From: an uncultured Bacilli bacterium
Lineage (GTDB): Bacteria > Bacillota_I > Bacilli_A > RFN20 > CAG-631
Assembly: GCA_947626825.1 (NCBI GenBank)
Contig: CANQTM010000001.1
Coordinates: forward strand, 32,568-96,567
Reading direction: 5' to 3'
Length of the DNA: 64,000 bases
The notes beneath the pieces were generated by a model, which worked only from the letters and a program-made list of their open reading frames with translations, made no database searches and had not been told where the DNA came from. Position numbers and translations under genes: made by a program. Position 1 is the stretch's first letter. Each line of letters begins with the position of its first letter. Shown one piece after another: positions 1,882 through 64,000 of the stretch.

Positions 1882-2416
1882 TTCTCATCGAAAACGTGGA
1901 ATTTGCGTGGGGCTTTCAAAAAAAACTCTTCAAAATCATGGTGCTTCAAAACAAAAGTGAGAATATAAAACTTACTTTTGTTTTTTTATCCAGATATTTT
2001 GAAAAATGTAATTTTTTAAATAGTAACTGCATTTATTAAAATACAAGTAAATTCAATATTTATTATATAAAACAGATAAAAAAAGGCAATTTATTAAATA
2101 TTTATAATTTTTTTGGACATAATATTTTTAATCAAAAATACAGTTGATTTTTATGCAAAATCAATTATTAAAAGCTATTCAAAAACGTGGGGTTTTTCAA
2201 CCCCACGTCATGAACAGCTTTTTTTGACTCCACAAAAAAATAAAGCCGAATTAGTAATGCTAAATGATTATTAATTTAAATTAAAATACAATTTTAACAA
2301 AGTTTTTAATTAGTAACTTTTTTCCATATTTATAAAGTTTTTTTCCATTGTTAGCATATTTTCTTAATGATATATTTAAAAAGAAGACGAATATTTACAT
2401 GGAGGTATTTTGCTTT

Positions 2417-5478: not shown

Positions 5479-6297
5479 TTATAAATAATATATCATTGAA
5501 AATAGTCCTAGCAAAAACAAATATAATGAATAATATTTATATTTTTTTTCTAAATTTATTTTAAAAAAATATTTTAGTGATATTAAAGTAAATATAAAAG
5601 CTACAATCATGGCAACAATATATAAATAAATTGTGTTTTCATAAAATTGTTTTTGAAAATCATTTTCAAAAATGGATAAAAATGCCGAACCTATTGAAAT
5701 TGGTAATAGCAATAAAAAAGTAAATTCTTTGCCCTTTTGTTCATTTAATTTAGCAATTTTACTGCCAAATAAAGTTGTACCACTTCTTGAAATGCCAGGA
5801 AAAATGCTAAAAGATTGAAAAAATCCAGTAATTAATGTGTTTTTTAAACTATAATTTGATTGATTATTATTTTTAATTTTACTTGAAAGAAACAATATTA
5901 AACTTGTTATTAGAAAACCAAGGGCAACATATATGCCATTATCAAAAAAAATTTCAATAATTGGTTTAAATATAAATCCAAATATAGCTGCAGGTATTGA
6001 GGCAATTATTAAAAATATTATTGTTAAAAAATCTTTTTTAAATTCAATTTTTTTCTTAAATATAAATTGAAAAGAATTTTTTATGATTTGCTTTAATGAT
6101 TTAAAAAAGAAAATAATTAAGGCCAAAGAACTGGCTAAATGTAAATAAATAGTTAAATCTAATTGATTTATTGTTTGAATATTTAACAAATCAAATGTCA
6201 ATGCTAAATGTCCACTACTACTTATCGGTAAAATTTCAGTAATACCTTGAATAAATCCAATAATAATATATTTTAAGATCTCTAAAATTTTTTGCAT
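5479..6297 (-). CDS. uppP: Undecaprenyl-diphosphatase UppP/BacA
   Basis: Motifs GITEILPISSSGHL and PGISRSGTTL. Eight-TM profile. Confidence 0.8.
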   Translation of the reverse strand: MQKILEILKYIIIGFIQGITEILPISSSGHLALTFDLLNIQTINQLDLTIYLHLASSLALIIFFFKSLKQIIKNSFQFIFKKKIEFKKDFLTIIFLIIASIPAAIFGFIFKPIIEIFFDNGIYVALGFLITSLILFLSSKIKNNNQSNYSLKNTLITGFFQSFSIFPGISRSGTTLFGSKIAKLNEQKGKEFTFLLLLPISIGSAFLSIFENDFQKQFYENTIYLYIVAMIVAFIFTLISLKYFFKINLEKKYKYYSLYLFLLGLFSMIYYL

Positions 6298-6372
6298 AAA
6301 ATCACCTAATAAATGCTATGCAAAAAGTTAAAAAAATAATATACTTATATTAAATAAAAGGAGCAAATAATT

Positions 6373-8553
6373 ATGCCTATAAAATTTAATTCAAAAGATA
6401 ATGTTTTACATTTGTATAACAAAACAATTTCTTATTTGATTTTTATTAGTAATGATAAAGGACTGATTCATTTATATTTTGGACCAAACTTGAAAAAGTA
6501 TGATTTAGATACCTTGGTTTATCACACTATTCATTACAATTCAAAATATGTAGATGGTCAAGAAAAATTTAATAGTTTGTTTGATTTAAATGATGAGACA
6601 TCAATGATGGAGTTTCCTGATTTTGGAACAGGTGATTATCGTTCAGTTGCTGTTAAGATAAAAAATTCATATGGTGATTGTACGACAGATTTTCAATATA
6701 AGAAACACAAAATAACAAAAGGTAAAGGAAAATTAGAAGGACTTCCTTCACTTTATGGAACAGAAAATGATTTTACAACTTTGCAAATTTTCCTTCAAGA
6801 TAAAGTAAGTAAAGTAGAAGCTGTTTTGGAATATAATATCATGGAAAATTATCCAATTATTACACGTAATGTTAAATTGGTTAATAAATCATCAAATGAT
6901 ATAGTATTAAAATATTTATATTCTGCTTGTCTTGATTTTCCAACAATGGATTATAATTTCTATTATTTAACTGGTCAATATTGTAAAGAAAGAACAATAA
7001 GACATAACAAAGTTCAACCAGGTATTCAAATGATTTCTTCTTTAGAAGGAAAATCTTCGCATCACACAACACCATTTTGCGCATTGACTAGTTTAGATGC
7101 ATGTGAAGATTATGGTGATGTTTATTCTATTAATTTTATTTATTCTGGCAATTTTGAAATACGTGTTGAAACAAGTCCTTGTGATTCAACAAGATTGCTT
7201 GTTGGTATTAATCCTGAAACTTTTGAATATTGTTTAACACCTTACGAATCTTTCCAATCACCAGAAGCAGTTTTACTTTATACAAATAAAGGTTTAGGTG
7301 AAATGACAAGAATATATCATAAAGTATTCAATAATCATTTAATTAGTAAAAGATGGCAAACAACAAAAAGGCCATTACTTTTGAATTCTTGGGAAGGATG
7401 TATTTTTGATTTTGATACTGAGAAATTATTAAAAATAATTGATGAATCTCACGAATTAGGTATTGAAATGTTAGTTTTAGATGATGGTTGGTTTGGTAAA
7501 AGAAATAGCGATACTTCATCACTAGGAGATTGGTATGTTAATAAAGATAAAGTTGATCTTCATAAAGTAATCAATCATCTTCATAAATATAATATGAAAT
7601 TTGGTTTGTGGTTTGAACCTGAAATGATTTGTCCTGATTCAGATTTATATAGAAAACATCCTAATTATGCAATAAAATCAAATAACAGATATCCTACATT
7701 AATGCGTCACCAAATGGTCTTGAATATGACTTCTAAAGAAGTGTGTGATAATGTTTATCAGCAAATTTCTAAAATGTTAGATGAATATGAAATTGATTAT
7801 ATTAAATGGGATCATAATCGTTCCATTACTGAAGCATATAGTAAAGAATTAGGTTATAAACATATGGGTGAATTTTATCATCGTTTTATTTTAGGAACAT
7901 ATAGCATTTTAGAAAAAATTAACACAAATTATCCTAATGTTTTGATTGAATCATGTTGTGGTGGCGGTGGTCGTTATGATGCTGGTATGTTATATTATGG
8001 TCCTCAAGTTTGGACTAGTGATGAAACAGATGCCATTGCACGTCTTACAATTCAAGAAGGAACAAGTTTTTGTTTTCCATGTTCATCAATGGGAAGCCAT
8101 GTAACTGCCAATCCAAGAACAAATTACAATACTAAAGCAAAAGTTGCCATGATGGGTACATTTGGATATGAATTGAATCCATTGACACTTAGTCAAGATA
8201 TAAAAGAAATGATAAAACAACAAATTAAAGAATATCATCAATATTATAATTTAACTCATTTTGGCAATTTATATCGACTTATTAGTCCAAGTGTTAATCC
8301 ATATAAAGCATCTTGGATGTTTGTTTCAGATAATAAAGATGAAGCTTTATTTACATATGTTGTGCCATTAAGAGGCCCTCAAAGTTTAAGTTATATCAAA
8401 CTTAAAGGCTTAGATGAAAATAAAGATTATTATTGTCCACAATTAGATAAAACATTTAATGGCAAATTTTTAATGACTTATGGTTTGAGATTAACATTTG
8501 CTTGGGTTGATACAGGACAAGCAATATCTTATTATTTTAAAGAAGTAAAATAA
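6373..8553 (+). CDS. Alpha-galactosidase, glycoside hydrolase family 36
   Basis: GH36 motifs LDDGWFG.R, KFGLWFEPEM, IDYIKWDHNR and CCGGGGRYD. AAGGAG RBS. Confidence 0.8.
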   Translation: MPIKFNSKDNVLHLYNKTISYLIFISNDKGLIHLYFGPNLKKYDLDTLVYHTIHYNSKYVDGQEKFNSLFDLNDETSMMEFPDFGTGDYRSVAVKIKNSYGDCTTDFQYKKHKITKGKGKLEGLPSLYGTENDFTTLQIFLQDKVSKVEAVLEYNIMENYPIITRNVKLVNKSSNDIVLKYLYSACLDFPTMDYNFYYLTGQYCKERTIRHNKVQPGIQMISSLEGKSSHHTTPFCALTSLDACEDYGDVYSINFIYSGNFEIRVETSPCDSTRLLVGINPETFEYCLTPYESFQSPEAVLLYTNKGLGEMTRIYHKVFNNHLISKRWQTTKRPLLLNSWEGCIFDFDTEKLLKIIDESHELGIEMLVLDDGWFGKRNSDTSSLGDWYVNKDKVDLHKVINHLHKYNMKFGLWFEPEMICPDSDLYRKHPNYAIKSNNRYPTLMRHQMVLNMTSKEVCDNVYQQISKMLDEYEIDYIKWDHNRSITEAYSKELGYKHMGEFYHRFILGTYSILEKINTNYPNVLIESCCGGGGRYDAGMLYYGPQVWTSDETDAIARLTIQEGTSFCFPCSSMGSHVTANPRTNYNTKAKVAMMGTFGYELNPLTLSQDIKEMIKQQIKEYHQYYNLTHFGNLYRLISPSVNPYKASWMFVSDNKDEALFTYVVPLRGPQSLSYIKLKGLDENKDYYCPQLDKTFNGKFLMTYGLRLTFAWVDTGQAISYYFKEVK

Positions 8554-8578
8554 AATTATCATTTAAATAATTAAAAAG

Positions 8579-8609
8579 TCGAGAACATTTTGAATTTCTC
8601 GGCTTTTTT
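8579..8609. terminator. Bidirectional terminator between the alpha-galactosidase gene and ispE
   Basis: gtcgagaa/ttctcggc hairpin flanked by A and T runs. Confidence 0.45.
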
Positions 8610-8628
8610 CAATGTATAAAATAAATAA

Positions 8629-9495
8629 TTAAAAAATTGTCTTTATTGTTTTATAAACGCCACAAATATCATAATCATTTTTATTAAATATTTGTTTTGC
8701 TTGTTTATATGGCAATGATTTTTCTGAAATAGCAAAGCATGCAGAACCAGAACCAGTTAATGAAACTATTTCAAAACCACATGAACGCATTCTTGTTAAA
8801 ATATCTAAAATATCTTTATTAAGTTTACATGCACTATCCATTAAAGAATTTGCAATATTTTTAGCAATTAATGAAAAATTGTTATTTTCTAATGCTTCTA
8901 TCAATTTATTATTATTTGAATGAGGCATATTTTTGTAATCAAGATTGTTATAAACATCTTTAGTTAAACATCCACTTTTTGGCTTAACAACAAAAATATT
9001 AGCATGAAATTTAGAATTAATTAAATCAATTTTAGTTCCTGTGTCTCTTACTCTTGCAAAACCACCATTAACCATATAAGCACCATCTGATGTTATTGAA
9101 TTTAAAAAATTTCTTTGGGCCAAATAATCCATTTTTTTCTTAAAATGATTGTTTAATATTTTTAATATAGTGGCAGCATTGCTAGAGCCACCACCAAGGC
9201 CACTACAAGCAGGTATATTCTTGATAAGTTTAATTTTAATAGAAAAATTTAAATTATAATATTTTTTAAATTTTTCAACGACTTTATAAATTAAATTATT
9301 ATGATCAGTAGGAACGTTTTCATCATTACATTCAATCATTATTTTATTATTATTATTATCGTTTAAAATATGAACATTAATGGTATCATATAAATTAATA
9401 GAACAATTAACCATATCTAATGTATGTAAATTAGTTGGTTTACTTTTATTTAATACATTTAATGATAAATTAATTTTTGCATAACTTTTTGCCAT
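8629..9495 (-). CDS. ispE: 4-diphosphocytidyl-2-C-methyl-D-erythritol kinase IspE (GHMP kinase)
   Basis: N-terminal AKINLSLNVL and GHMP motif PACSGLGGGSSNAA. Confidence 0.7.
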   Translation of the reverse strand: MAKSYAKINLSLNVLNKSKPTNLHTLDMVNCSINLYDTINVHILNDNNNNKIMIECNDENVPTDHNNLIYKVVEKFKKYYNLNFSIKIKLIKNIPACSGLGGGSSNAATILKILNNHFKKKMDYLAQRNFLNSITSDGAYMVNGGFARVRDTGTKIDLINSKFHANIFVVKPKSGCLTKDVYNNLDYKNMPHSNNNKLIEALENNNFSLIAKNIANSLMDSACKLNKDILDILTRMRSCGFEIVSLTGSGSACFAISEKSLPYKQAKQIFNKNDYDICGVYKTIKTIF

Positions 9496-9630
9496 ATAAT
9501 TTTTCTCCTTTGTAGCTATATTTTCCCTATTTTTATTATATCATTATAATAAAATATGTGATAAAATATTTTTTGCAAAGGAAACATTAATAAATAGTTT
9601 GTTCATGATTATTTATTAATAAAAGAAAAT

Positions 9631-10197
9631 ATGAACGATTATTCAATCTTATTTTTTTCTATATCAATGATAATTGTCTTTTTATATAGAATTATTTTTG
9701 GAATATTTTTACTTTGTAAGAAGAAATATATTATTGATGAAAAATATTATATAATGGTTTTTTATTGTTCTTTGGTTGCTATTTTAGTTTTATTTACTAA
9801 TTGGTGGATTGCAGGTTTAATTTTATATGCTTTATTGCCCTTTGTGCTTTTATTATATGTTTCGTTTGCACCAACTAGAAAATATTGGTTAGTTAATGGC
9901 TATGAACTTAGTGAAGCAACATTTTTAAATCAATTAATAATTGATAATCCCAAATTGAAAGATACAACTTATAGAGTTAATCATTTTCAAATTATAAAGA
10001 AAAAATCGGAACATAAAACTAAAATAGAATTCAAAAAAATTTCATTTGAAGAAAAAGAAAAAATTTTAAATGGCCTAATTCAAGTTTGTAAAGAAAGAGT
10101 CAAAAAATCAAACAAACATGAATTAATAACAATCTTTCTTTACTTAATTTTGATATTAATTTTAATTATAATTATAATTCTTACTATATTTTTATAA
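9631..10197 (+). CDS. Hypothetical membrane protein
   Basis: N- and C-terminal hydrophobic helices. Sits in the position of yybS upstream of gdpP but is not obviously related to it. Confidence 0.4.
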   Translation: MNDYSILFFSISMIIVFLYRIIFGIFLLCKKKYIIDEKYYIMVFYCSLVAILVLFTNWWIAGLILYALLPFVLLLYVSFAPTRKYWLVNGYELSEATFLNQLIIDNPKLKDTTYRVNHFQIIKKKSEHKTKIEFKKISFEEKEKILNGLIQVCKERVKKSNKHELITIFLYLILILILIIIIILTIFL

Positions 10198-55643: not shown

Positions 55644-56924
55644 TTATTCATTATCATTTTCTTTATCATTTTCAGTTGGTTCTAGATTAGTTATTGAAAC
55701 TCTTTCAATAGTAAATTGTGTAGCACTAATAATTTTTATGCGATAATGCCCGAATGTAAAACTTTCTTTTTCTTTAGGGAAATGTCCTAATTGATCAATA
55801 ACCCAACCACCAACAGTTGTATAGATATTATCATAGTTTTCGTAATCATATTCGATAGTATCGAAAAAATCATAAATATTCATATCACCAGCAACAGTAA
55901 ATGTTTTTTGATTAACTTTGTGATATTCTTCATTTTCTTCTTTGTCTTTTTCATCATAAATATCACCAACAAGTTCTTCAATGATATCTTCCATTGTCAA
56001 TATTCCTAAAGTTCCACCATATTCATCTTTTACAATGGCCATATGGATATGATATTGACGCATTTGTTTTAAAATTTCTGAAATTGATTGCGTTTGGAAA
56101 ACATATAATGGTTCAGTTAATAAATTGTTTATATCAATTGAATCACCATTTAAATGTTGTTTTATAATTTGTTTGGTATTTAAAATTCCAACAATGTTGT
56201 CAATATTATCTTTAAAAACAGGAATACGGGAATAATTCAACAATTTTGGATCATTTAATAAAGCATTGATATCATCATCAATATCAAAAGCATATACATC
56301 AGTACGATGCTTCATGATTTCAACAGCATCAACATCAATAAAATCGATTGCGTTTGTTATAAGAGTTTGAATATCTTCATTAATCAATCCTTGTGCTTCT
56401 AATGTATCAACCATTTCAATTAATTCATCATCTGTAACTTGAACTTTCTTTTTCTTTTTTGACAATAATTTATTAAATCCTTTTAAAGATATTTGTACAA
56501 TGAAAGTAATAGGATAAAAAATAATTTGAAAAAATTTTAAAGGAAATGAAAACAATTTACTAAAATTAAATGCATAACTTGTAGCAAGGGATTTTGGAAT
56601 TATTTCACCAAAAACTAAAATTACAAGAGTCATAATAATAGCAGCTAAAGTTTCTGCATTGTTTGGAAAAGTTTGAATTAATAAAATGGTAGCTAAGGAT
56701 GTTGCAGTAATGTTAACTAAATTGTTTCCAATTAAAATTGTTGTTATTGTATCGTTATAGTTATTGACAAAATAGTTAGCTAATTTTGCACCTTTTTCAT
56801 TTTTAGTTACAGCTCTTTCTAAACGAACTTTATTAACCTTTGCCAAAGCAATTTCAATTCCAGAAAAGAATGATGACAAAATCACACACAAAATTATTAA
56901 AATAACAATGATTACCTTATTCAT
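55644..56924 (-). CDS. CNNM/CorC-family protein (DUF21 + CBS pair + CorC_HlyC)
   Basis: Four TM helices, CBS domains, and a C-terminal transporter-associated domain. Confidence 0.75.
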   Translation of the reverse strand: MNKVIIVILIILCVILSSFFSGIEIALAKVNKVRLERAVTKNEKGAKLANYFVNNYNDTITTILIGNNLVNITATSLATILLIQTFPNNAETLAAIIMTLVILVFGEIIPKSLATSYAFNFSKLFSFPLKFFQIIFYPITFIVQISLKGFNKLLSKKKKKVQVTDDELIEMVDTLEAQGLINEDIQTLITNAIDFIDVDAVEIMKHRTDVYAFDIDDDINALLNDPKLLNYSRIPVFKDNIDNIVGILNTKQIIKQHLNGDSIDINNLLTEPLYVFQTQSISEILKQMRQYHIHMAIVKDEYGGTLGILTMEDIIEELVGDIYDEKDKEENEEYHKVNQKTFTVAGDMNIYDFFDTIEYDYENYDNIYTTVGGWVIDQLGHFPKEKESFTFGHYRIKIISATQFTIERVSITNLEPTENDKENDNE

Positions 56925-57964
56925 GATTTTTTCTTCTTCTTTCCTTCATTACTTTCATCAATATCACCAACTAAACGTTCTAAAACATCTTCCATTGTAA
57001 TAATTCCAACAGTTTTATCTTTGTTATCTTTAACAATAGCCATATGTGTTTTCTTTCTTTTAAATTTCATAAAAACTGTTTTTATTTCAGAAGCTGGTGT
57101 AGTAAAAATAGGCTTAACCAACATGTCTTCTAAGTTATATTGTTCATTTGACATTAATACTTTAAGTAATTTTTGCAAATGTAAAATACCAATTATGTTA
57201 TCTATATTTCCTTTATATACAGGAATTCTTGTATATGGATTATCTAAAACATAATCAATTAATTGTTCTCTATTTAAGTTTAAATCAATATTATATGCTA
57301 CTATTTTATTTTTTGGGCACATAACATTTTTAACTCTAATACTTTTAAAATCAACAGCTGATTGAATAATTTGCTTTTCTTGTTCTTCAATTAAACCTTC
57401 TTGTTGAATATTTCCAACAATTTGTTGAAAATCTTCTTCATCAATTAAAGGATCTTCTTTTTTTGCTTTAAATATTTTTTTTAATAATCCTATCAAACCA
57501 CTAAATAATAAAGAAATAGGTGTTAAAATCCAAGCTAAAGCAAAAATTGGGTAAACAATAATTTTAACTATAAAATTAGCAAATGTTTTACCAATATTTT
57601 TAGGAATTATTTCACCAAAAAAGAATACTATTAATGTTGAAAAAATAATAGCAAATAAAGAACCTACTTCTTCTCTTGACATATTTTGAAAAAAAGTAGT
57701 ATTTTGCACTAAATTTGTGCATAAAATTGTGGCTAAAATAGAAATTAAAATATTAACAATATTGTTGCCAATTAAATTGGTAATAATATATTTATCAAAA
57801 TTATTTAAGCATCTAACTACAAGTTTAGAACTTTTTTTCCCATCATCTGCTTCAACTCTTAATTTTATTTGATCACAATATGAAAAAGCACTCTCACTCA
57901 TTGAAAAAAAAGCCGAAAGAAATAAAAGTATAACCAATAGTATAGATCTGGTCAGGCTCGACAT
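56921..57964 (-). CDS. CNNM-family protein (DUF21 + CBS pair), tandem paralog lacking the CorC_HlyC tail
   Basis: Same architecture minus the C-terminal domain. Overlaps its downstream neighbour by 4 nt. Confidence 0.7.
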   Translation of the reverse strand: MSSLTRSILLVILLFLSAFFSMSESAFSYCDQIKLRVEADDGKKSSKLVVRCLNNFDKYIITNLIGNNIVNILISILATILCTNLVQNTTFFQNMSREEVGSLFAIIFSTLIVFFFGEIIPKNIGKTFANFIVKIIVYPIFALAWILTPISLLFSGLIGLLKKIFKAKKEDPLIDEEDFQQIVGNIQQEGLIEEQEKQIIQSAVDFKSIRVKNVMCPKNKIVAYNIDLNLNREQLIDYVLDNPYTRIPVYKGNIDNIIGILHLQKLLKVLMSNEQYNLEDMLVKPIFTTPASEIKTVFMKFKRKKTHMAIVKDNKDKTVGIITMEDVLERLVGDIDESNEGKKKKKS

Positions 57965-58008: not shown

Positions 58009-58599
58009 TTATAACAAGAAAAATTGAGTTTTCAATGTTTTTATATTTTTAAGTCCTTCATAAATAAAATTGCTAATTAAATAAATAAACCCACTAAATT
58101 CTATAATTGCAAAGATAACATATAAAATAATTCCAAAAATTAAACCAAGACATAATGAACTATAACTTCCTTTATAAAAAATTAATATGCTTATAGCAAA
58201 AAGCAAATATTTTCCAATAAAAGATACTAATAAAATAGTAAAAATTAGTAACTTTTTACTTAAAAAGTTCCAATTTATGAAAATAAACTTTAAACATAAT
58301 AAAATAGCAAAAAATATTAAAAATAATATAGGAGCTATATTTAAATTATTGAAAAAGGCACCAATGACATTCATAACGACTTGAAAATTAACAAATTCAG
58401 TTTGCCCTATTTCATGATATATTTGACCTACAATGCCATTATTTAAAATTGTATCTAATTCGTTTTCACTTAAACTATAACATTTAAATAAAGGAAGCAT
58501 TGCAATTAAATCTTTTATAATAAAAATTCCTGCCAAAAAAGCCAAAATAAATAGGCCAAAATTAATTATAAATTCGCATAATTTTTGATTTTTTGACAT
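58009..58599 (-). CDS. Hypothetical polytopic membrane protein
   Basis: About five TM helices. No motif recognised. Confidence 0.4.
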   Translation of the reverse strand: MSKNQKLCEFIINFGLFILAFLAGIFIIKDLIAMLPLFKCYSLSENELDTILNNGIVGQIYHEIGQTEFVNFQVVMNVIGAFFNNLNIAPILFLIFFAILLCLKFIFINWNFLSKKLLIFTILLVSFIGKYLLFAISILIFYKGSYSSLCLGLIFGIILYVIFAIIEFSGFIYLISNFIYEGLKNIKTLKTQFFLL

Positions 58600-58747
58600 T
58601 TAAATCACCAATAAATATTATAACTTTAAAATATTTGAAAGAAAACACTTTTCTATAATATTTAAAAATATTATTGAAAATCGCTTGCGTTTTGTGTTAT
58701 TATATTTAAGCGTATGTAGTATTTGTTTTTTTAGGAGGTATTACGTA

Positions 58748-59551
58748 ATGAAAAAAATTAAGGCATTTTTTGCTAGAGTTGGTAATTATATTAAAAATAC
58801 AGCTTGGATTCAACCTTTGTTGATTGTTATAGTTATTTTCGTTCTTTTATTTTCTTTAGCACCAATTACTGGTTGTACTAAATCATTTTGGGCTAGAGTA
58901 ACAACAGTTAATAAAATGGATAAAATTTCTTATAAAGAATATATTGAAAAAATTAAAGGTTCAAAAGAAGATGATAAATTTATCATTGTCTTTACTCAAG
59001 AAAATTGTGATGTTTGCCCTATGTTCTATAAAAATATGAATGATTATTTAAAAAATGATTATGGCAAAAAAGCACAAGATTTTGAAATTTTTAATGTTGA
59101 TTTGTCAACTAAATCTAGCAAAGTAAAAATTAATGGTTCAAAATATCAAGTTTATAAAGATAAGACATTAGGATTAGTTTCTCCTACAAGTTATGCAAGC
59201 AATGAAATTATTGCCCAAGATTATGCTAAAAAACTTGATGAAAGAATTAAAACATTCAATGAAAGAGCTTTTGATGGTGCTAATAGCAGTGAATTAGAAC
59301 CTGTAAGTGAAAGTGCTTATACATATTTATCAACTCCATTAGTTATTTGGTATGAAGGTGGTTTAGAAACTAGAATTTCAAATAAATATGATTCTCTTGA
59401 AAAACAATCAGATAACAAAAAAGTTAAAACAACTGAATTTAAAAAGTACATTGAAAACTTTGAAGGTGAAACTAAAGCTGAATGGAATGATGAATTTGAT
59501 TTAACATTCAGTGAATATAAAAACATTAAGGATGCATTTGAAGAGCACTAA
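58748..59551 (+). CDS. Membrane-anchored thioredoxin-like CxxC protein
   Basis: AGGAGGT RBS. N-terminal TM helix. Thioredoxin-fold-like FIIVFTQENCDVCPMF. Confidence 0.55.
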   Translation: MKKIKAFFARVGNYIKNTAWIQPLLIVIVIFVLLFSLAPITGCTKSFWARVTTVNKMDKISYKEYIEKIKGSKEDDKFIIVFTQENCDVCPMFYKNMNDYLKNDYGKKAQDFEIFNVDLSTKSSKVKINGSKYQVYKDKTLGLVSPTSYASNEIIAQDYAKKLDERIKTFNERAFDGANSSELEPVSESAYTYLSTPLVIWYEGGLETRISNKYDSLEKQSDNKKVKTTEFKKYIENFEGETKAEWNDEFDLTFSEYKNIKDAFEEH

Positions 59552-59573: not shown

Positions 59574-60230
59574 ATGAAAAAAGGATTTCTCCTTTCAATT
59601 ATTTTATTAGCAAGTTTTGTTAGTTGCGCTAATGAAAATGATTTGGCATTAAAAACTATCACCTACAAAGAATATATAAATAAAGTTTCTAATGAAGTTG
59701 AAAATGATAGAGATATATTTATTTTTACGACATCAACTTGCACACATTGTCAAAAAATTAGACCACTTTTAAATAAATATGTTGCTTTAAATCCAGATGT
59801 TAATATTTTTGAATTATCTTTAGATGTTAAAATTTCTACTTTTGGTGATAATACATATATATTTAAAGATAGTTCAATGGGATATTTCACTGGTGATGCA
59901 AAAGATGATTGTATAAAATCATTGGATAATCGTATTGCTTTATATGCTAATGCAAATAATTTAGAAAATAATTCTAGTACTAATGCTTTATATTCTCCAA
60001 TCGATATTGAAGGAAATAGCAAATATATGTATGTTTATACTCCATTAATTATTTTTTATGAAAGTGGTTTAGAAGTAAATATTATTAATAATGTTGAAAG
60101 TTTATTAACATATGATAAAAAAAATAAAATTGAATATGATTCATTTGCTAAAATATTTGAATTTCCAACAGAAAAAAATCAATGGGATAAACCATTTGAT
60201 TTAACTTATTCAACTGCTTTTACTCTTTAA
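59574..60230 (+). CDS. Thioredoxin-like CxxC lipoprotein (paralog of the preceding gene)
   Basis: Lipobox LASFVSC. IFIFTTSTCTHCQKI motif. Shares C-terminal blocks (PL[VI]I[WF]YE.GLE and FDLT[FY]S) with the upstream paralog. Confidence 0.55.
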   Translation: MKKGFLLSIILLASFVSCANENDLALKTITYKEYINKVSNEVENDRDIFIFTTSTCTHCQKIRPLLNKYVALNPDVNIFELSLDVKISTFGDNTYIFKDSSMGYFTGDAKDDCIKSLDNRIALYANANNLENNSSTNALYSPIDIEGNSKYMYVYTPLIIFYESGLEVNIINNVESLLTYDKKNKIEYDSFAKIFEFPTEKNQWDKPFDLTYSTAFTL

Positions 60231-60258
60231 TGTCTACTTTGTGTAGACATTTTTTTTA
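60230..60258. terminator. Bidirectional rho-independent terminator
   Basis: atgtctac-tttg-gtagacat followed by T8. Confidence 0.6.
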
Positions 60259-60265
60259 TAAAAAA

Positions 60266-60876
60266 GTGATAAATAATCACTTAACGATTATATAAATCTA
60301 TATCAATACCGCATTTAGGAGGCAAACTATCACTAAGATTCCAAAACGTTTTATCAAATGTAGCGTTAATTTTTGTATAAGTTTGTGATTCATTGAATGG
60401 AAAATAAATAATCATTTCGTCTTCAAATTCAGGTATATCATAATAACTAATTGGAAAGACGCCCTCAGACCAAGATTGCATATATTCACCATTTGCAAAA
60501 ATATGATCAACACCACGAATATATGCTATAACTAAATTATAATTACAGTTTTCAGATTCAGATAAGTTGTTAATTAATTTTATTTCAAATCCTTTACTAT
60601 TAATAGATATAAACTCTACATCATAAGAAAAATCATATTCAAGATAATCATATTCACTATTGTTGACTTCCCATCTATCTCCAGGTGAATATTTTATAAC
60701 TTTTTCACCATTTGAACATGATATAAGAGGAATAGTCAAAGAAAGAATCATTATTTTTTTTAACATCTTCATTTCCTCCTTTGTTGTCATCATTATATCA
60801 TATTAAATGTTTATTGACAATTTATACAATTCACGATATTGTTAAAAAAATTAACCTGCAATATATGGAATTGTCC
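60266..60876. repeat. ~611 bp duplicated segment, copy A (~85-90% identical to 62704..63317)
   Basis: Carries the lipoprotein gene, its TTGTCA-17-TGATATAAT promoter and RBS, and a remnant of the 3' end of an upstream gene. Confidence 0.9.
60281..60772 (-). CDS. Secreted lipoprotein of unknown function, copy A
   Basis: AAGGAGGAA RBS lies within the annotated MMTTKEE, so the true start is MKMLKK. Lipobox LISC. Confidence 0.6.
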   Translation of the reverse strand: MKMLKKIMILSLTIPLISCSNGEKVIKYSPGDRWEVNNSEYDYLEYDFSYDVEFISINSKGFEIKLINNLSESENCNYNLVIAYIRGVDHIFANGEYMQSWSEGVFPISYYDIPEFEDEMIIYFPFNESQTYTKINATFDKTFWNLSDSLPPKCGIDIDLYNR

Positions 60877-61052
60877 ATTTAGATTTTCTTAGTTAATTTA
60901 GATTTGGTGTCATTTATTTGCCATTTTCTCAATTAATTTTTTTAGTAGAAAATCTAATTTTTTAAATTATATATATATTGTCAAATTGATTTATATATTC
61001 ATATTTTGCAAATGTAAGGAATGTAAAACAAATTTAAAAATTATAATTAGCA

Positions 61053-61355
61053 TTAAATTTGCTCATCGCTAGTACTACTTTTTTTAAATATTTGTTTAAT
61101 AATTTGATTTGCACCTGTAGAACTTGCACCACTTACAATTCCAACACCTAATGCAAACCATACATTATCTGCATTTAATATCATTTTAGGAGCAGTAAAA
61201 TAAATTAAAACACCCAATATGCCCCCAATAACTGCAACTAATATTGGAATCAATTTGTATGCTTCTTGCTTCTTTTTAAATAAAATCTTGTAAATTTCTC
61301 CTATGATATAGCAACATACAACTATAATAGGAACACATGTAAAATTCATCATCAA
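61053..61355 (-). CDS. Phage-type holin (phiLC3/A118 Hol-like, class with GxxxG-rich second TM helix)
   Basis: Three hydrophobic helices. LIPILVAVIGGILGVL...VGIVSGASSTGANQIIKQIFKK resembles the A118/phiLC3 holin family, recalled from memory. Confidence 0.45.
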   Translation of the reverse strand: MMMNFTCVPIIVVCCYIIGEIYKILFKKKQEAYKLIPILVAVIGGILGVLIYFTAPKMILNADNVWFALGVGIVSGASSTGANQIIKQIFKKSSTSDEQI

Positions 61356-61400
61356 TTAACCTCCTTCTTAAAATGAATTTTTAGTAATTTAAAATTTTAA

Positions 61401-61706
61401 TTATGTATTATCTAGTTTATACATGTCATCAACTCGTTTCGTAACATTAACTACTGACTCTTCAACTTTTGCAAGACGCTCAGCAATATTACGATCACGC
61501 TCATCTACTTTATTTAAGTTTTTTTCAACTCGATCTACACATGCTTTGATATAACCAATATCTGAAAACATCACCCCTTCTGTTTTACCATCAGTTCTTT
61601 GTTCTTGCTTATCGCTTCTTTTAAATGCTAAATAAGCAAATACAATACTTGAAATAGATGCAAAGAAACCTACTAAAATAACAATTAATTCAAAAGTCAT
61701 AACCAT
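61401..61706 (-). CDS. BhlA/UviB-like holin-like protein (N-terminal TM helix + charged coiled-coil tail)
   Basis: Architecture match: a TM helix at residues 4-27 followed by a Lys/Glu/Asp/Arg-rich helix. Confidence 0.4.
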   Translation of the reverse strand: MVMTFELIVILVGFFASISSIVFAYLAFKRSDKQEQRTDGKTEGVMFSDIGYIKACVDRVEKNLNKVDERDRNIAERLAKVEESVVNVTKRVDDMYKLDNT

Positions 61707-61865
61707 CAGCTCCTTAATCTTTTTGTTAAGAAATTTATTTCTTCATAAATAAGGAAACGAAAAGTTCAAAAGTACATGGTTTATTTTTAACTTTTTATTT
61801 TAATAAATAACATTAAAACAAAAAAATGTTAACGCCTTTTGGGCATTAACACTTTTAAAAAATTA

Positions 61866-62684
61866 TTAAAATATTTTATATGTTTTTGTTATATCATGTG
61901 ATTCGATGAAATCATTATATTCCACAATATCACAAGATCTATGAAATGCATTTAAAATTATTGATGCTATGTATTTTTTACTTTCATTTATTGTTTTAAA
62001 TGAAATAGGATTGTTAAATAATACCACGAGATCTACGTCGCTATTTTTGTGATATTCATTTTTATACATAGAACCAAACAAGAACATTGATTTAATTTCT
62101 TTTTCTACTAATTCATCTTTTTTACTTTGAAGTAAATTTATTATTTCTTCTTTTAAATTATGGTTATTTTCATTATTATTGATAAATAATGTATTAAAAT
62201 AACTATATAAAAAATATATACGAGAATTAACATTTTTTATTGTTTGATAAACTTCATACAAATTTGCTGGTGGTACACACGGATAATTGTATTGTCTTGT
62301 CAAATATATAGTCAATAGTAGAAAAAACAAATAACTTTCAGATGATGCCATTTCTTTAAATTTTATTAGATATCTATCTAACCATTCAAACACACGAATT
62401 CCTGGTTTTATTCTTTCAATTATTAAGTCAAGATTTACAATCTTCTTGTCATATATCATTTCAAAACATCTTTTATATTCTAATTCATTAGAATTAATTG
62501 GTAATGAATATATCATTTGGAACAATTTAAAATAATTTAATATTTCCTGATTAAAATTTGTATCGTTATTTTGTATTCTAAAAGTAATTTTCTTTATATC
62601 ATCGTATTTATGAACACCATAATAATTGTCATAAAATGATGATATTACTTTGCAAGGAAACGTTGAAGTATATGTTGTATCCAT
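61866..62684 (-). CDS. Protein with a C-terminal minimal nucleotidyltransferase (Pol-beta superfamily) domain and an N-terminal uncharacterised helical domain
   Basis: FLFGSMYKNEYHKNSDVDLVVLF fits the GS-x(9-13)-DhD NTase motif. Confidence 0.5.
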   Translation of the reverse strand: MDTTYTSTFPCKVISSFYDNYYGVHKYDDIKKITFRIQNNDTNFNQEILNYFKLFQMIYSLPINSNELEYKRCFEMIYDKKIVNLDLIIERIKPGIRVFEWLDRYLIKFKEMASSESYLFFLLLTIYLTRQYNYPCVPPANLYEVYQTIKNVNSRIYFLYSYFNTLFINNNENNHNLKEEIINLLQSKKDELVEKEIKSMFLFGSMYKNEYHKNSDVDLVVLFNNPISFKTINESKKYIASIILNAFHRSCDIVEYNDFIESHDITKTYKIF

Positions 62685-62703
62685 TTTTACTCCAAAAAAA
62701 TAA

Positions 62704-63317
62704 GTTATAAAATAATCACTTAATGATCGTATAAATCTATATCAATACCGCATTTAGGAGGCTCACTATCACTAGGATTCCAAAACAAATTATCAAATGT
62801 AGCGTTAATTTTTGTATAAGTTTGTGATTCATTGAATGGAAAATAAATAATCATTTCGTCTTCAAATTCAGGTATATCATAGTTGGGTCTTGGAAAGATC
62901 ATGCCTTCAGTATGAAATTGTATAAATTCACCATTGGCAAAAATATAATCCACTTCACGAATAGATGCTATAACTAAATTATAATTACAGTTTTCAGATT
63001 CAGATAAGTTGTTAATTAATTTTATTTCAAATCCTTCACTATCAATAGATATAAATTCTACATCATAAGAAAAATCATATTCAAGATCATCATATTCACT
63101 ATTGTTGACTTCCCACCTATCTCCAGGTGAATGTTTTATAACTTCTTTACCATTTGAACACGATATAAGAGAAATAGTCAAAGAAAGAATCATTATTTTT
63201 TTTAACATCTTCATTTCCTCCTTCGTTGTCATCATTATATCATATTAAATGTTTATTGACAATTTATACAATTCACGATATTGTTAAAAAAATTTACCTG
63301 CAATATATGAAATTGTT
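62704..63317. repeat. ~614 bp duplicated segment, copy B
   Basis: See copy A. Confidence 0.9.
62720..63214 (-). CDS. Secreted lipoprotein of unknown function, copy B
   Basis: Same promoter, RBS and signal peptide as copy A. Mature part ~85% identical. Confidence 0.6.
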   Translation of the reverse strand: MKMLKKIMILSLTISLISCSNGKEVIKHSPGDRWEVNNSEYDDLEYDFSYDVEFISIDSEGFEIKLINNLSESENCNYNLVIASIREVDYIFANGEFIQFHTEGMIFPRPNYDIPEFEDEMIIYFPFNESQTYTKINATFDNLFWNPSDSEPPKCGIDIDLYDH

Positions 63318-64000
63318 TCATTACACTTTATAACATTTCCATGACTATAATTACTTTTATAAACATTATAATATTGAGCATTATTAGGATCCTCTATTGC
63401 CTCATCATAAATACCATTTATAATGTCGTTCATAATAGGATAGTTTGTTAATTCGAATTCCATTTTGTCATTATGAATCCATGAATCTATCAAATCTTCT
63501 AATACTTGCAAACCAGTAACTAATAAAGCAGATTCTAAGTTGAAAGATGGCAAGCAACAATTTTTATAACAAGTTTTATATGTTCCATATTGGTAATAAC
63601 AATTTCCGCACATAAATTGTTTTGAGTTATAACATTCTAAGGACCTATCTGTTATACCAACAATTTTAGCGTTTTCAATATCGGTTTGTTCACCAATTGA
63701 AACTAATCCATCAAATGGATATTTATAAATACTATTTGGAATATATACACCATTATAATCACAATAACCAGGAATTACCTTGAACAAATGTCCTGAAACA
63801 CTTGAAATTACTGTTAAGTTAGGTCTATTTGATAATTTATTCCATCGTCCTTTAACATCATCGAAATAATCAGATTTAGCTAAGATCTCAACACATTCCT
63901 TATATTTTTTGGCAGTTCCTGGTTTGTCTTGAATTACTTCATACAAATCTGTTCCAAAAATTTTTGTAAGTACATTTACATTGATTAATTTTTTTGCCAA
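63284..64000 (-). CDS. Cys-rich hypothetical protein, N-terminally truncated by window end
   Basis: Open frame runs to nt 64000. Cys cluster CYNSKQFMCGNCYYQYGTYKTCYKNCC. Its last eight codons are duplicated upstream of lipoprotein copy A. Confidence 0.4.
   Translation of the reverse strand: MAKKLINVNVLTKIFGTDLYEVIQDKPGTAKKYKECVEILAKSDYFDDVKGRWNKLSNRPNLTVISSVSGHLFKVIPGYCDYNGVYIPNSIYKYPFDGLVSIGEQTDIENAKIVGITDRSLECYNSKQFMCGNCYYQYGTYKTCYKNCCLPSFNLESALLVTGLQVLEDLIDSWIHNDKMEFELTNYPIMNDIINGIYDEAIEDPNNAQYYNVYKSNYSHGNVIKCNETISYIAGKFF

Follow-up and report, generated by a model that had tools for sequence, protein, structure and literature searches.

Lipase-type effectors of the Tle-Tli class are α/β-hydrolases with a GxSxG motif, which attack membranes from outside the cytoplasm. 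They are found in Gram-negative bacteria and are delivered by way of a type VI secretion system (T6SS); their immunity proteins are extracytoplasmic and often lipoproteins, and orphan immunity genes are common. In Staphylococcus aureus, the lipase toxin TslA, a phospholipase secreted through a type VII system (T7SS), is inhibited by TilA, a lipoprotein whose copy number varies (PMC10730906). Extracellular immunity genes also occur as orphans, whereas cytoplasmic immunity travels with the toxin (PMC12744356). Toxins without a signal peptide can be released in a holin-dependent manner under a dedicated sigma factor (PMC3369941), and the RHS-containing Tc toxin of Yersinia entomophaga is released by a holin-based type 10 secretion system (T10SS) (PMC10847048). 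Here, a duplicated lipoprotein gene and its neighbours were analysed in a 64,000-nt stretch of DNA (the window; contig CANQTM010000001.1, positions 32,568 to 96,567) from an uncultured, very AT-rich gut bacterium of the Bacilli; the window has about 25% G+C. The locus most likely encodes a lipase-type effector, a surface lipoprotein serving as its immunity protein, and an orphan immunity copy. This reading, in which toxicity and inhibition are inferred, is held with moderate confidence.

The segment was recovered by blastn as two copies, A and B (Table 1), which share 91.9% identity over 619 alignment columns with 4 gap columns (E = 0). The initial annotation had placed a segmental duplication carrying the 3' tip of the neighbouring gene at 60266-60876 and 62704-63317, within 6 nt of the edges found here. 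These edges are sharp: similarity between the copies was undetectable past either end by blastn, in agreement with a repeat search and MAFFT, and no third copy was found in the 64-kb window. Each copy contains the last 33 nt of the upstream gene, a promoter, a ribosome-binding site (RBS) and an intact lipoprotein open reading frame (ORF), named lipoA or lipoB; all genes are on the minus strand. In copy B, the 33 nt before the promoter are the genuine 3' end of a hydrolase gene (TISYIAGKFF-stop); in copy A, they read TIPYIAG-stop-FF-stop, with a premature stop created by an AAA-to-TAA change. Both tips are as first described. The promoter of both copies is TTGTCA-17-TATAAT preceded by TG (extended -10), with a score of 11/12, and TTGTCA-17-TG-N-TATAAT is the top promoter-like match on both strands of 60150-64000; the RBS AAGGAGGAAATGAAGATG is identical in the two copies. 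A promoter scan and a codon check confirmed the proposal that promoter, RBS, signal peptide and gene body are common to both. The 105 nt 5' of the ATG differ at 3 sites (2.9%), compared with about 8% of sites in the coding part. The minus-strand gene order is hydrolase (running off the window at 64000), lipoB, a nucleotidyltransferase gene (NTase1), a hairpin, an XhlA-like gene, a holin gene, a 178-nt spacer, and copy A with lipoA. Beyond lipoA lie two thioredoxin-like genes on the opposite strand, convergent with lipoA. Both copies occur in the same order on a contig from another sample (L006), and two more contigs (L007 and L008) span the region from the holin to copy A. Because these independent contigs carry the two-copy arrangement, an assembly artefact in the window was ruled out.

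The lipoA and lipoB products share the signal peptide MLKKIMILSLTI(S/P)LIS, followed by C, and the lipobox L-I-S-C. The dS and dN values between the two genes are 0.12 and 0.08, respectively (dN/dS 0.67). The amino-acid changes are concentrated at residues 83-110, and many of them are charge-altering or non-conservative. No Pfam family matched the lipoprotein. A structure model of moderate quality (pLDDT 69, from an input of 7 sequences) predicts a mature protein of about 140 residues, which is all-β. The partner proteins in related loci are 147-182 aa long, contain a lipobox, and are mutually homologous; they share 18-62% identity with lipoB and a conserved KYSPGDxW motif. The partner protein in the related locus L020 matched the family profile with an hhalign probability of 90%. 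A second lipoprotein gene in this locus (L020:10236-10664, 142 aa), located between NTase1 and the XhlA-like gene, may be immunity-like; it was rejected as a member of the family (hhalign probability 2.7%). HMMER identified 8 matches to the family at E <= 0.001 among 1.84 billion representative proteins, two of which look spurious, with multi-stretch alignments in 585- and 984-aa proteins. Searching JGI metagenome contigs with the lipoprotein profile returned nothing.

The gene upstream of lipoB, first listed as a Cys-rich ORF, was followed past position 64000, a check that had been proposed for it. It is not a housekeeping gene; it encodes a 421-aa lipase-like hydrolase of a rare family, which occurs on phages and genomic islands. 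Contig L006, with 99.2% identity to the window, supplied the full-length sequence. The nucleophile Ser152 (GHSQGG) falls just past the window end, and Asp280 (63710-63712) and His403 (63341-63343) lie within it, together with the conserved Cys306 (63632-63634), Cys317 (63599-63601), Cys327 (63569-63571) and Cys331 (63557-63559). In an alignment of 28 sequences, GHSQGG with Ser152, D280 and C331 are invariant, and H403, C306, C317 and C327 are nearly invariant. None of the aligned hydrolases has a signal peptide, and most begin with MSSI. The cysteine spacing (C-x10-C-x9-C-x3-C) appears closer to disulfides than to a CxxC zinc site, which suggests an extracellular protein.

Homology searches with the full-length hydrolase identified 31 clusters among 5.8 billion proteins, nearly all of about 420 aa; the full-length protein was required for this result, and the C-terminal 238 aa as query recovered one homologue. 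The Pfam matches were borderline: PGAP1 scored 24.2 bits against a cut-off of 24.3, and Tle3 (PF24322) gave E = 0.019, below its cut-off. The nearest PDB sequences were Burkholderia and Pseudomonas lipases, aligned around the nucleophile elbow. The AlphaFold (AF2) model is of high quality (pLDDT 91, pTM 0.90), and its best Foldseek matches were family I lipases of Proteus, Pseudomonas and Burkholderia; both sequence and fold are nearest to the family I.1 and I.2 lipases. The 50 best fold matches included no solved structure described as a Tle effector. No LXG, PAAR or VgrG-type domain was found, and the divergence among the hydrolases is spread over the full length, with no constant body and variable C-terminal tip. 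Because the catalytic triad is conserved, the clusters are few, and the fold matches are lipases, the protein is predicted to belong to a rare and undescribed family of lipases or esterases and to be catalytically intact; it is not a housekeeping enzyme. In contigs L001-L005, the hydrolase is split into 140- and 267-aa ORFs by a +1 frameshift (e.g. L001:9935-9945). The frameshift lies in a poly-A run immediately 5' of the codons for GHSQGG; this run is A8 here and A7 in L086. Contigs from five different samples show the split, all with an intact lipoprotein gene; the gene is a fixed pseudogene, or else the tract is phase-variable and prone to slippage.

The hydrolase and the lipoprotein belong to a three-gene cassette. 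In every locus read, the order is hydrolase, lipobox protein, and an NTase of 265-278 aa with a common N-terminal domain; the sole exception is L017, which is without the NTase. The lipobox protein lies directly 3' of the hydrolase in all full loci, across 25-100% hydrolase identity, and in these loci the lipoprotein genes are not scattered and unlinked, the outcome that would have spoken against a pairing. The cassette was found in three settings. In the phage-like contigs L012-L014, it lies between DNA methylase genes and the genes for large terminase, portal and capsid. In L019 (8001-10537), it stands by itself in the rpoA-rplQ-ecfA-ecfA-ecfT cluster, which is conserved apart from this insertion between rplQ and ecfA, and the cassette hence moves as a self-contained unit. 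In L001, L086 and L020, it is part of a chromosomal operon, consisting of a sigma factor, the cassette, the XhlA-like protein, the holin, two further NTases (NTase2 and NTase3), and a giant RHS/PT-HINT protein, which has no signal peptide in any of the three. The framework proteins of L020 and L001 (sigma factor, XhlA-like, holin, NTase2) are 86-96% identical, whereas identity is only about 40% for their hydrolases, 28% for the lipoproteins and 27% for NTase1; the three genes are therefore exchanged as one unit. The lipoprotein diverges fastest in the cassette, in step with the hydrolase. Among GTDB species representatives, the hydrolase family was found in 3 genomes, labelled 'bacterium', 'Bacilli bacterium' (sheep colon) and 'Anaeroplasmataceae bacterium'. 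The number of lipoprotein copies varies between relatives, as had been anticipated: two in the window lineage and one each in L001, L086 and L020. The initial annotation had also described an island of holin-like and NTase genes bracketed by the copies. The genes are as described; however, the NTase is not part of an inserted island. It forms the third member of the cassette, and the XhlA-like and holin genes are components of the operon framework, which is conserved.

The lipoprotein gene has a conserved promoter of its own. Of 9 distinct divergent loci, 8 have a near-consensus sigma-A promoter with an extended -10 in the short spacer between the hydrolase and lipoprotein genes, 22-40 nt 5' of the lipoprotein start, even amid unalignable sequence. 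This promoter, together with the terminator-like hairpin 3' of NTase1, indicates that the lipoprotein and NTase1 can be expressed independently of the hydrolase. The lipoprotein also occurs alone, whereas NTase1 was seen only with the hydrolase. The orphan homologue P0038 is located on a 138-kb contig of a spore-forming Firmicute (L089, in the region 5986-10102); it has its own promoter and an upstream hairpin, and the hydrolase is absent within 6 kb. The surrounding element contains a MobL relaxase and two large serine recombinases, followed by a series of small proteins without annotation, among them a membrane protein and two further lipoproteins; this region looks like an immunity-gene island.

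These features bear on whether the lipoprotein could be a helper of the hydrolase, such as a membrane-anchored foldase, anchor or activator of the Lif type, with the second copy as a by-product of rearrangement. The genes of family I.1 and I.2 lipases, the nearest relatives of the hydrolase, precede a membrane-anchored foldase gene, and the strict gene order of the cassette would fit this arrangement. Lif proteins have about 340 residues and are all-α; the mature lipoprotein is much shorter and predicted to be all-β, unlike Lif. A helper has no need for a promoter that bypasses the enzyme gene, and would be useless without the enzyme, yet the orphan copies stay intact. A helper function is therefore considered very improbable.

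NTase1 consists of an N-terminal helical domain of no known family and a C-terminal Pol-β-type domain. The Pfam models Polbeta (43.2 bits) and NTP_transf_2 (40.8 bits) matched above their cut-offs; the NCBIfam MntA antitoxin model matched at 3.4e-8 (33.3 bits against a cut-off of 60). In PADLOC 2.0, NTase1 matched the candidate singleton PDC-S09 (2.9e-13) and, weakly, a cyclase model (E = 0.0057); no model was hit by the hydrolase, the lipoprotein, the XhlA-like protein or the holin. These results might point to a defence module of the abortive-infection or toxin-antitoxin type, in which the NTase would sense or signal, or act as an enzymatic antitoxin; the hydrolase would be a cytoplasmic effector that phage attack sets free to destroy the membrane; the lipoprotein would have a side role, for example shielding siblings against the enzyme that dying cells release; and the duplicate would be a spare of this side component. 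In addition to the PDC-S09 and MntA matches, this is consistent with an autonomous and mobile cassette (by itself in L019, and next to DNA methylases in accessory regions of prophages), with the lack of a signal peptide in the hydrolase, and with the MC2/CTD6 conflict system that adjoins L001 and L086. However, PADLOC recognized neither the hydrolase nor the lipoprotein, and the MNT-like NTase has no HEPN partner: neither a HEPN domain nor an RX4-6H motif was present, and the partner of NTase1 is the hydrolase. A conserved extracytoplasmic lipoprotein with its own promoter and free-standing orphans has no clear role in an intracellular switch, and the cysteine pattern of the hydrolase suggests an extracellular protein. 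A defence module is thus an unlikely explanation.

The framework genes are of phage type. The XhlA-like protein matched phrog_1863 (5.7e-17), and the holin belongs to the Hol44 family. No endolysin gene follows the holin in the window or in any related operon locus read. The sigma factor is encoded just past position 64000; it matched TIGR02937 with 46 bits (cut-off 42.9), and matched only the general sigma-70/ECF superfamily model. A 37-nt motif (TGTACTTTT-N4-TTTT-N-G-NN-TCCTTATTTATGAAGA) has 1 match in the window, where 0 are expected by chance. In three lineages, it occurs exactly twice per locus spanning both sites, at fixed positions: just 3' of the sigma-factor gene ahead of the hydrolase gene, and ahead of the XhlA-like gene. 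The two copies may be promoters for the locus's own sigma factor, which would co-induce the hydrolase and the holin; the motif common to these genes is the only hint of release through the holin.

The phage-derived sigma factor, XhlA-like protein and holin, and the three phage-like contigs carrying the cassette, also raise the question of a prophage-type function. The lipoprotein could be a superinfection-exclusion or surface-masking protein, captured together with a hydrolase that serves as a phage entry or lysis accessory, and two copies would widen the specificity. A constitutive promoter, fast divergence and stand-alone copies would suit exclusion genes as well. However, there is no reason for an exclusion gene to stay tied to, and co-diverge with, a hydrolase and an NTase across the whole family. 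The chromosomal loci have no virion genes but include an RHS toxin. No PHROG exclusion family matched, and no homologue was found in GenBank phages (blastn with 60200-64000, tblastn with the hydrolase) or in IMG/VR. An exclusion function is accordingly judged quite improbable.

Copy A is joined to a deletion scar. Next to the holin gene, a decayed stub of NTase2 was identified, which has 73-79% DNA identity to L001, L086 and L020 by blastn (E 1e-8 to 8e-10) and 40% identity over 37 codons by tblastn. In these relatives, there is an overlap between the stop codon of the holin gene and the start of the NTase gene that follows it. The stub beside the holin indicates that the window lineage has lost NTase2, NTase3 and the RHS gene, and copy A is joined to that scar through an 81-nt AT-rich junction, which matched no fetched locus and nothing elsewhere in the window. 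Copy A had initially been described as having lost its cognate upstream gene. The deletion is real, but the genes demonstrably lost are the downstream NTase-NTase-RHS segment, and a 33-nt tip cannot tell of a full hydrolase gene of its own. Copy A may go back to a second full cassette or to a duplication in which only 33 nt of the hydrolase gene were included.

Recombination between the copies was examined by scoring contigs of other samples at the 55 sites that distinguish A from B. Three independent samples (L087, L007 and L009) carry a B-A-B mosaic at the B position, and L006 carries an A-B-A mosaic at the A position. The two copies thus exchange tracts by gene conversion across samples. 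The possibility that the B-A-B allele is an assembly artefact was rejected, since the same allele is found in three samples. In L088, the hydrolase is joined directly to the thioredoxin-like gene through a hybrid lipoprotein copy, as would result from recombination between the repeats with loss of NTase1 and of the XhlA-like and holin genes; this contig, with about 2x coverage, could be a collapsed assembly.

The duplication could also be a neutral scar of the RHS-segment deletion, with copy A functionless and kept similar solely by conversion from copy B. Copy A lies directly beside the deletion scar and the junction, a dN/dS of 0.67 is compatible with relaxed constraint, and conversion tracts are seen. 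However, although the copies have diverged by about 8%, copy A retains an intact ORF, lipobox, RBS and promoter, and its promoter region has changed less than the coding part. The conversion is also bidirectional, with A-type tracts at the B position in three samples. A neutral origin of this kind therefore receives little credence. The intact orphans and the bypass promoter argue most strongly against both the helper and the scar explanations.

Taken together, the findings on the hydrolase, its linkage, the promoter, the RHS operon and the orphan fit a toxin-immunity pair with an orphan immunity copy. The immunity reading, the best supported one, draws on an intact lipase-like enzyme that lacks a signal peptide and has extracellular-looking cysteines; on an extracytoplasmic partner that evolves fast, has a promoter of its own and is obligately linked; on the exchange of the genes as a cassette; on its residence in phages and in an RHS/holin conflict locus; and on stand-alone lipoprotein copies (lipoA and P0038). 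The initial annotation had proposed a polymorphic toxin-immunity or bacteriocin-immunity array. This proposal holds for the rare hydrolase, its fixed lipoprotein partner with a conserved promoter, the RHS operon in relatives and the orphan on a mobile element; the hydrolase, however, is not a modular polymorphic toxin. Orphan duplication of an immunity-like gene is a familiar pattern.

The immunity reading could work as follows. The locus's own sigma-70-family factor would activate the two promoters with the same motif, one for the hydrolase and the other for the XhlA-like and holin genes; the motif pair is observed, and its function is putative. The hydrolase would leave the cell through holin lesions or lysis of a subpopulation, and would attack the membrane lipids of neighbouring cells from outside. 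The lipoprotein would be made continuously from the sigma-A promoter and anchored on the outer face of the cell membrane, where it may bind and block the hydrolase and thereby provide immunity. NTase1, co-transcribed with the lipoprotein, is presumably cytoplasmic and may protect the producer from inside, as MntA-type antitoxins do. Copy A would be an orphan immunity copy beside the scar, and the direct repeats could delete the NTase-XhlA-holin segment.

Several points weigh against this reading. Toxicity, export, and binding between lipoprotein and hydrolase are all inferred. The hydrolase could remain in the cytoplasm, and its four cysteines could instead bind a metal. The lipoprotein has no detectable similarity, in sequence or fold, to known immunity proteins. 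The dN/dS of 0.67 between the copies also fits relaxed constraint, and values below 1 are no proof of diversifying selection. The mosaic alleles were read from metagenome assemblies, of which some have low coverage. L006 and L087 have an identical hydrolase (P0007) and different B-position lipoprotein alleles, so the variable patch does not track the resident hydrolase. Holin export cannot be the general route of the cassette, because L019 and the phage contigs L012-L014 carry it without a holin or sigma factor. The role of NTase1 as a cytoplasmic protector, which would explain why only the lipoprotein is found as an orphan, is a conjecture.

A more extensive and rather doubtful version can be formulated. 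The locus would represent an undescribed three-gene weapon cassette common to uncultured gut Bacilli and temperate phages, consisting of a signal-less lipase toxin, an extracellular immunity lipoprotein, and an NTase that nucleotidylylates the toxin and keeps it inert in the producer. In chromosomes, the cassette would be plugged into an export framework resembling the pathogenicity locus (PaLoc) of Clostridioides difficile (own sigma factor, XhlA-like protein and holin, no endolysin), which would also release the RHS toxin; lipoprotein copies would be traded between strains as orphans by gene conversion. No prior description of the hydrolase family, the lipoprotein family, the linked NTase, or the holin/sigma/RHS framework with phage carriage was found in the literature. 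If the immunity reading is true, lipase toxins paired with immunity lipoproteins, so far known from type VI and type VII secretion, also occur in poorly known uncultured gut Bacilli, with delivery by a holin and a dedicated sigma factor or by phage lysis. An NTase as an enzymatic cytoplasmic immunity factor for a lipase would also be new. The compact cassette moves among phages, housekeeping clusters and RHS toxin operons. The locus may also serve as a testable case, in natural populations, of how an immunity gene present as direct repeats is diversified by gene conversion and of how such repeats can remove the export genes lying between them.

Other features were observed around the locus. 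The remaining window is ordinary chromosome, encoding DnaB, IF-2, NusA, RimP, RNase J, CTP synthase, GdpP and ComEC. In L001 (5332-8558) and L086 (586-3737), a divergent three-gene system adjoins the RHS-bearing locus; it has MC2 and CTD6 domains and a 599-aa protein, with a weak AAA_23 match in L086. MC2 and CTD6 are families described from NTP-dependent conflict systems. The window lineage has an ISL3 transposase where L001 and L086 carry this system; in L087, the ISL3 gene lies just 5' of the sigma-factor gene of the locus, past window position 64000. Two segments of the window (1883-1941 and 2170-2250) are about 89% identical to the flanks of the ISL3-family transposase gene in L087, and may be insertion-sequence ends or a MITE-like remnant. 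The thioredoxin-like genes (58685-59551 and 59574-60230, plus strand) encode tandem paralogous membrane-anchored thioredoxin-fold proteins with 31% amino-acid identity and CxxC motifs (CDVC and CTHC). They gave weak sub-threshold matches to the bacteriocin-maturation disulfide isomerase PedC/BrcD (E = 0.007) and to TrbB (1.3e-5), and could aid the oxidative folding of an exported Cys-rich protein; linkage of these genes to the cassette was not found in other lineages. A tandem pair of CNNM/CBS (CorC-type) transporter paralogues (55644-57964, minus strand) is followed by a 196-aa multi-pass membrane protein with no family match (58009-58599).

Table 1. Positions of the duplicated segment, the cassette and the associated features in the window.
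Feature	Position	Strand	Description
Repeat copy A	60260..60874	-	33-nt hydrolase tip with premature stop (60842-60874), promoter (60792-60820), RBS, lipoA, 21 nt downstream
lipoA	60281..60766	-	Lipoprotein of 161 aa, intact; shares 84% identity with lipoB; differences concentrated at residues 83-110
AT-rich junction	60875..60955		81 nt, between stub and copy A
Pseudogene stub of NTase2	60956..61066	-	Decayed first ~37 codons, two in-frame stops; by blastn and tblastn
Holin	61053..61352	-	Hol44 family, 99 aa; PF16079 48.9 bits (cut-off 29.2); phrog_1129 holin
XhlA-like membrane protein	61401..61700	-	99 aa; phrog_1863; Pfam XhlA 15.4 bits, below cut-off
37-nt motif	61740..61776	-	5' of XhlA-like gene; putative promoter for the locus's own sigma factor
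Terminator-like hairpin and T-run	61822..61856	-	Directly 3' of NTase1
NTase1	61866..62684	-	272 aa; N-terminal helical domain, C-terminal Pol-β-type nucleotidyltransferase; GS...SDVD...D motifs
Repeat copy B	62698..63316	-	Last 33 nt of hydrolase gene, promoter, RBS, lipoB, 22 nt downstream
lipoB	62720..63208	-	162-aa lipoprotein; signal peptide MLKKIMILSLTISLIS, then C; mature part all-β (model)
lipoB promoter	63234..63262	-	Predicted sigma-A type; TTGTCA, 17 nt, TG-N-TATAAT; 11/12
Lipase-like α/β-hydrolase, 3' part	63284..64000	-	Residues 184-421 and stop; codons checked

Polymorphic toxins of the Rhs and contact-dependent inhibition (CDI) type have a constant body and a variable C-terminal toxin domain, and their orphan modules keep a stretch of the constant part. 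The locus resembles such arrays in having an immunity-like gene after a toxin 3' fragment, an RHS toxin in relatives, and recombination between repeats. However, the tip is only 33 nt, the hydrolase diverges over its whole length, and the exchanged unit is the three-gene cassette. The type VII toxin-antitoxin system HepT-MntA pairs a HEPN toxin with a minimal nucleotidyltransferase that has the motif GSx(n)DxD; here, the NTase motifs are present and the HEPN partner is absent. Among the known anti-phage systems in PADLOC 2.0, including CBASS, only the NTase finds matches. The Lif foldase gene has a similar position, but the size and the all-β fold of the lipoprotein differ, and orphans exist without a lipase gene. 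The Tle-Tli pairs are analogous and not homologous: the hydrolase matches Tle3 only below the cut-off, and its fold is nearest to the family I lipases. No T6SS or T7SS targeting part or linked system was found; the neighbours are the sigma factor, the XhlA-like protein and the holin.

The C. difficile PaLoc, with the sigma factor TcdR and the holin TcdE (PMC3369941), and the T10SS are similar to this locus at the level of the genes present: toxins lacking a signal peptide are encoded together with a dedicated sigma factor and a phage-type holin, and a full lysis cassette is missing. The payload is different, being a lipase-like enzyme with an immunity-like lipoprotein, and the targets are probably other bacteria; the RHS gene is present in relatives and deleted in the window lineage. 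In the EsxX system with ExiAB and ExiCD (PMC12744356), the cytoplasmic immunity protein occurs only with the toxin and the extracellular one also as an orphan, a distribution that is mirrored here by NTase1 and the lipoprotein. The proteins are entirely different, and the cytoplasmic role of NTase1 is conjectural. The lipoprotein shows no homology to TilA, which is a DUF576 protein, or to Tli, and there is no sequence or fold relation to the TslA-TilA pair; the locus also differs in its holin and sigma factor and in the NTase as a third gene. However, several features of TslA-TilA and Tle-Tli are found here: a GxSxG hydrolase with a Ser-Asp-His triad (fold predicted), an adjacent lipobox partner, and variable copy number with orphans. 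As in TslA-TilA, a gene for a putative lipase-type effector in the Bacillota lies beside a surface lipoprotein gene, which has its own promoter and varies in copy number and sequence.

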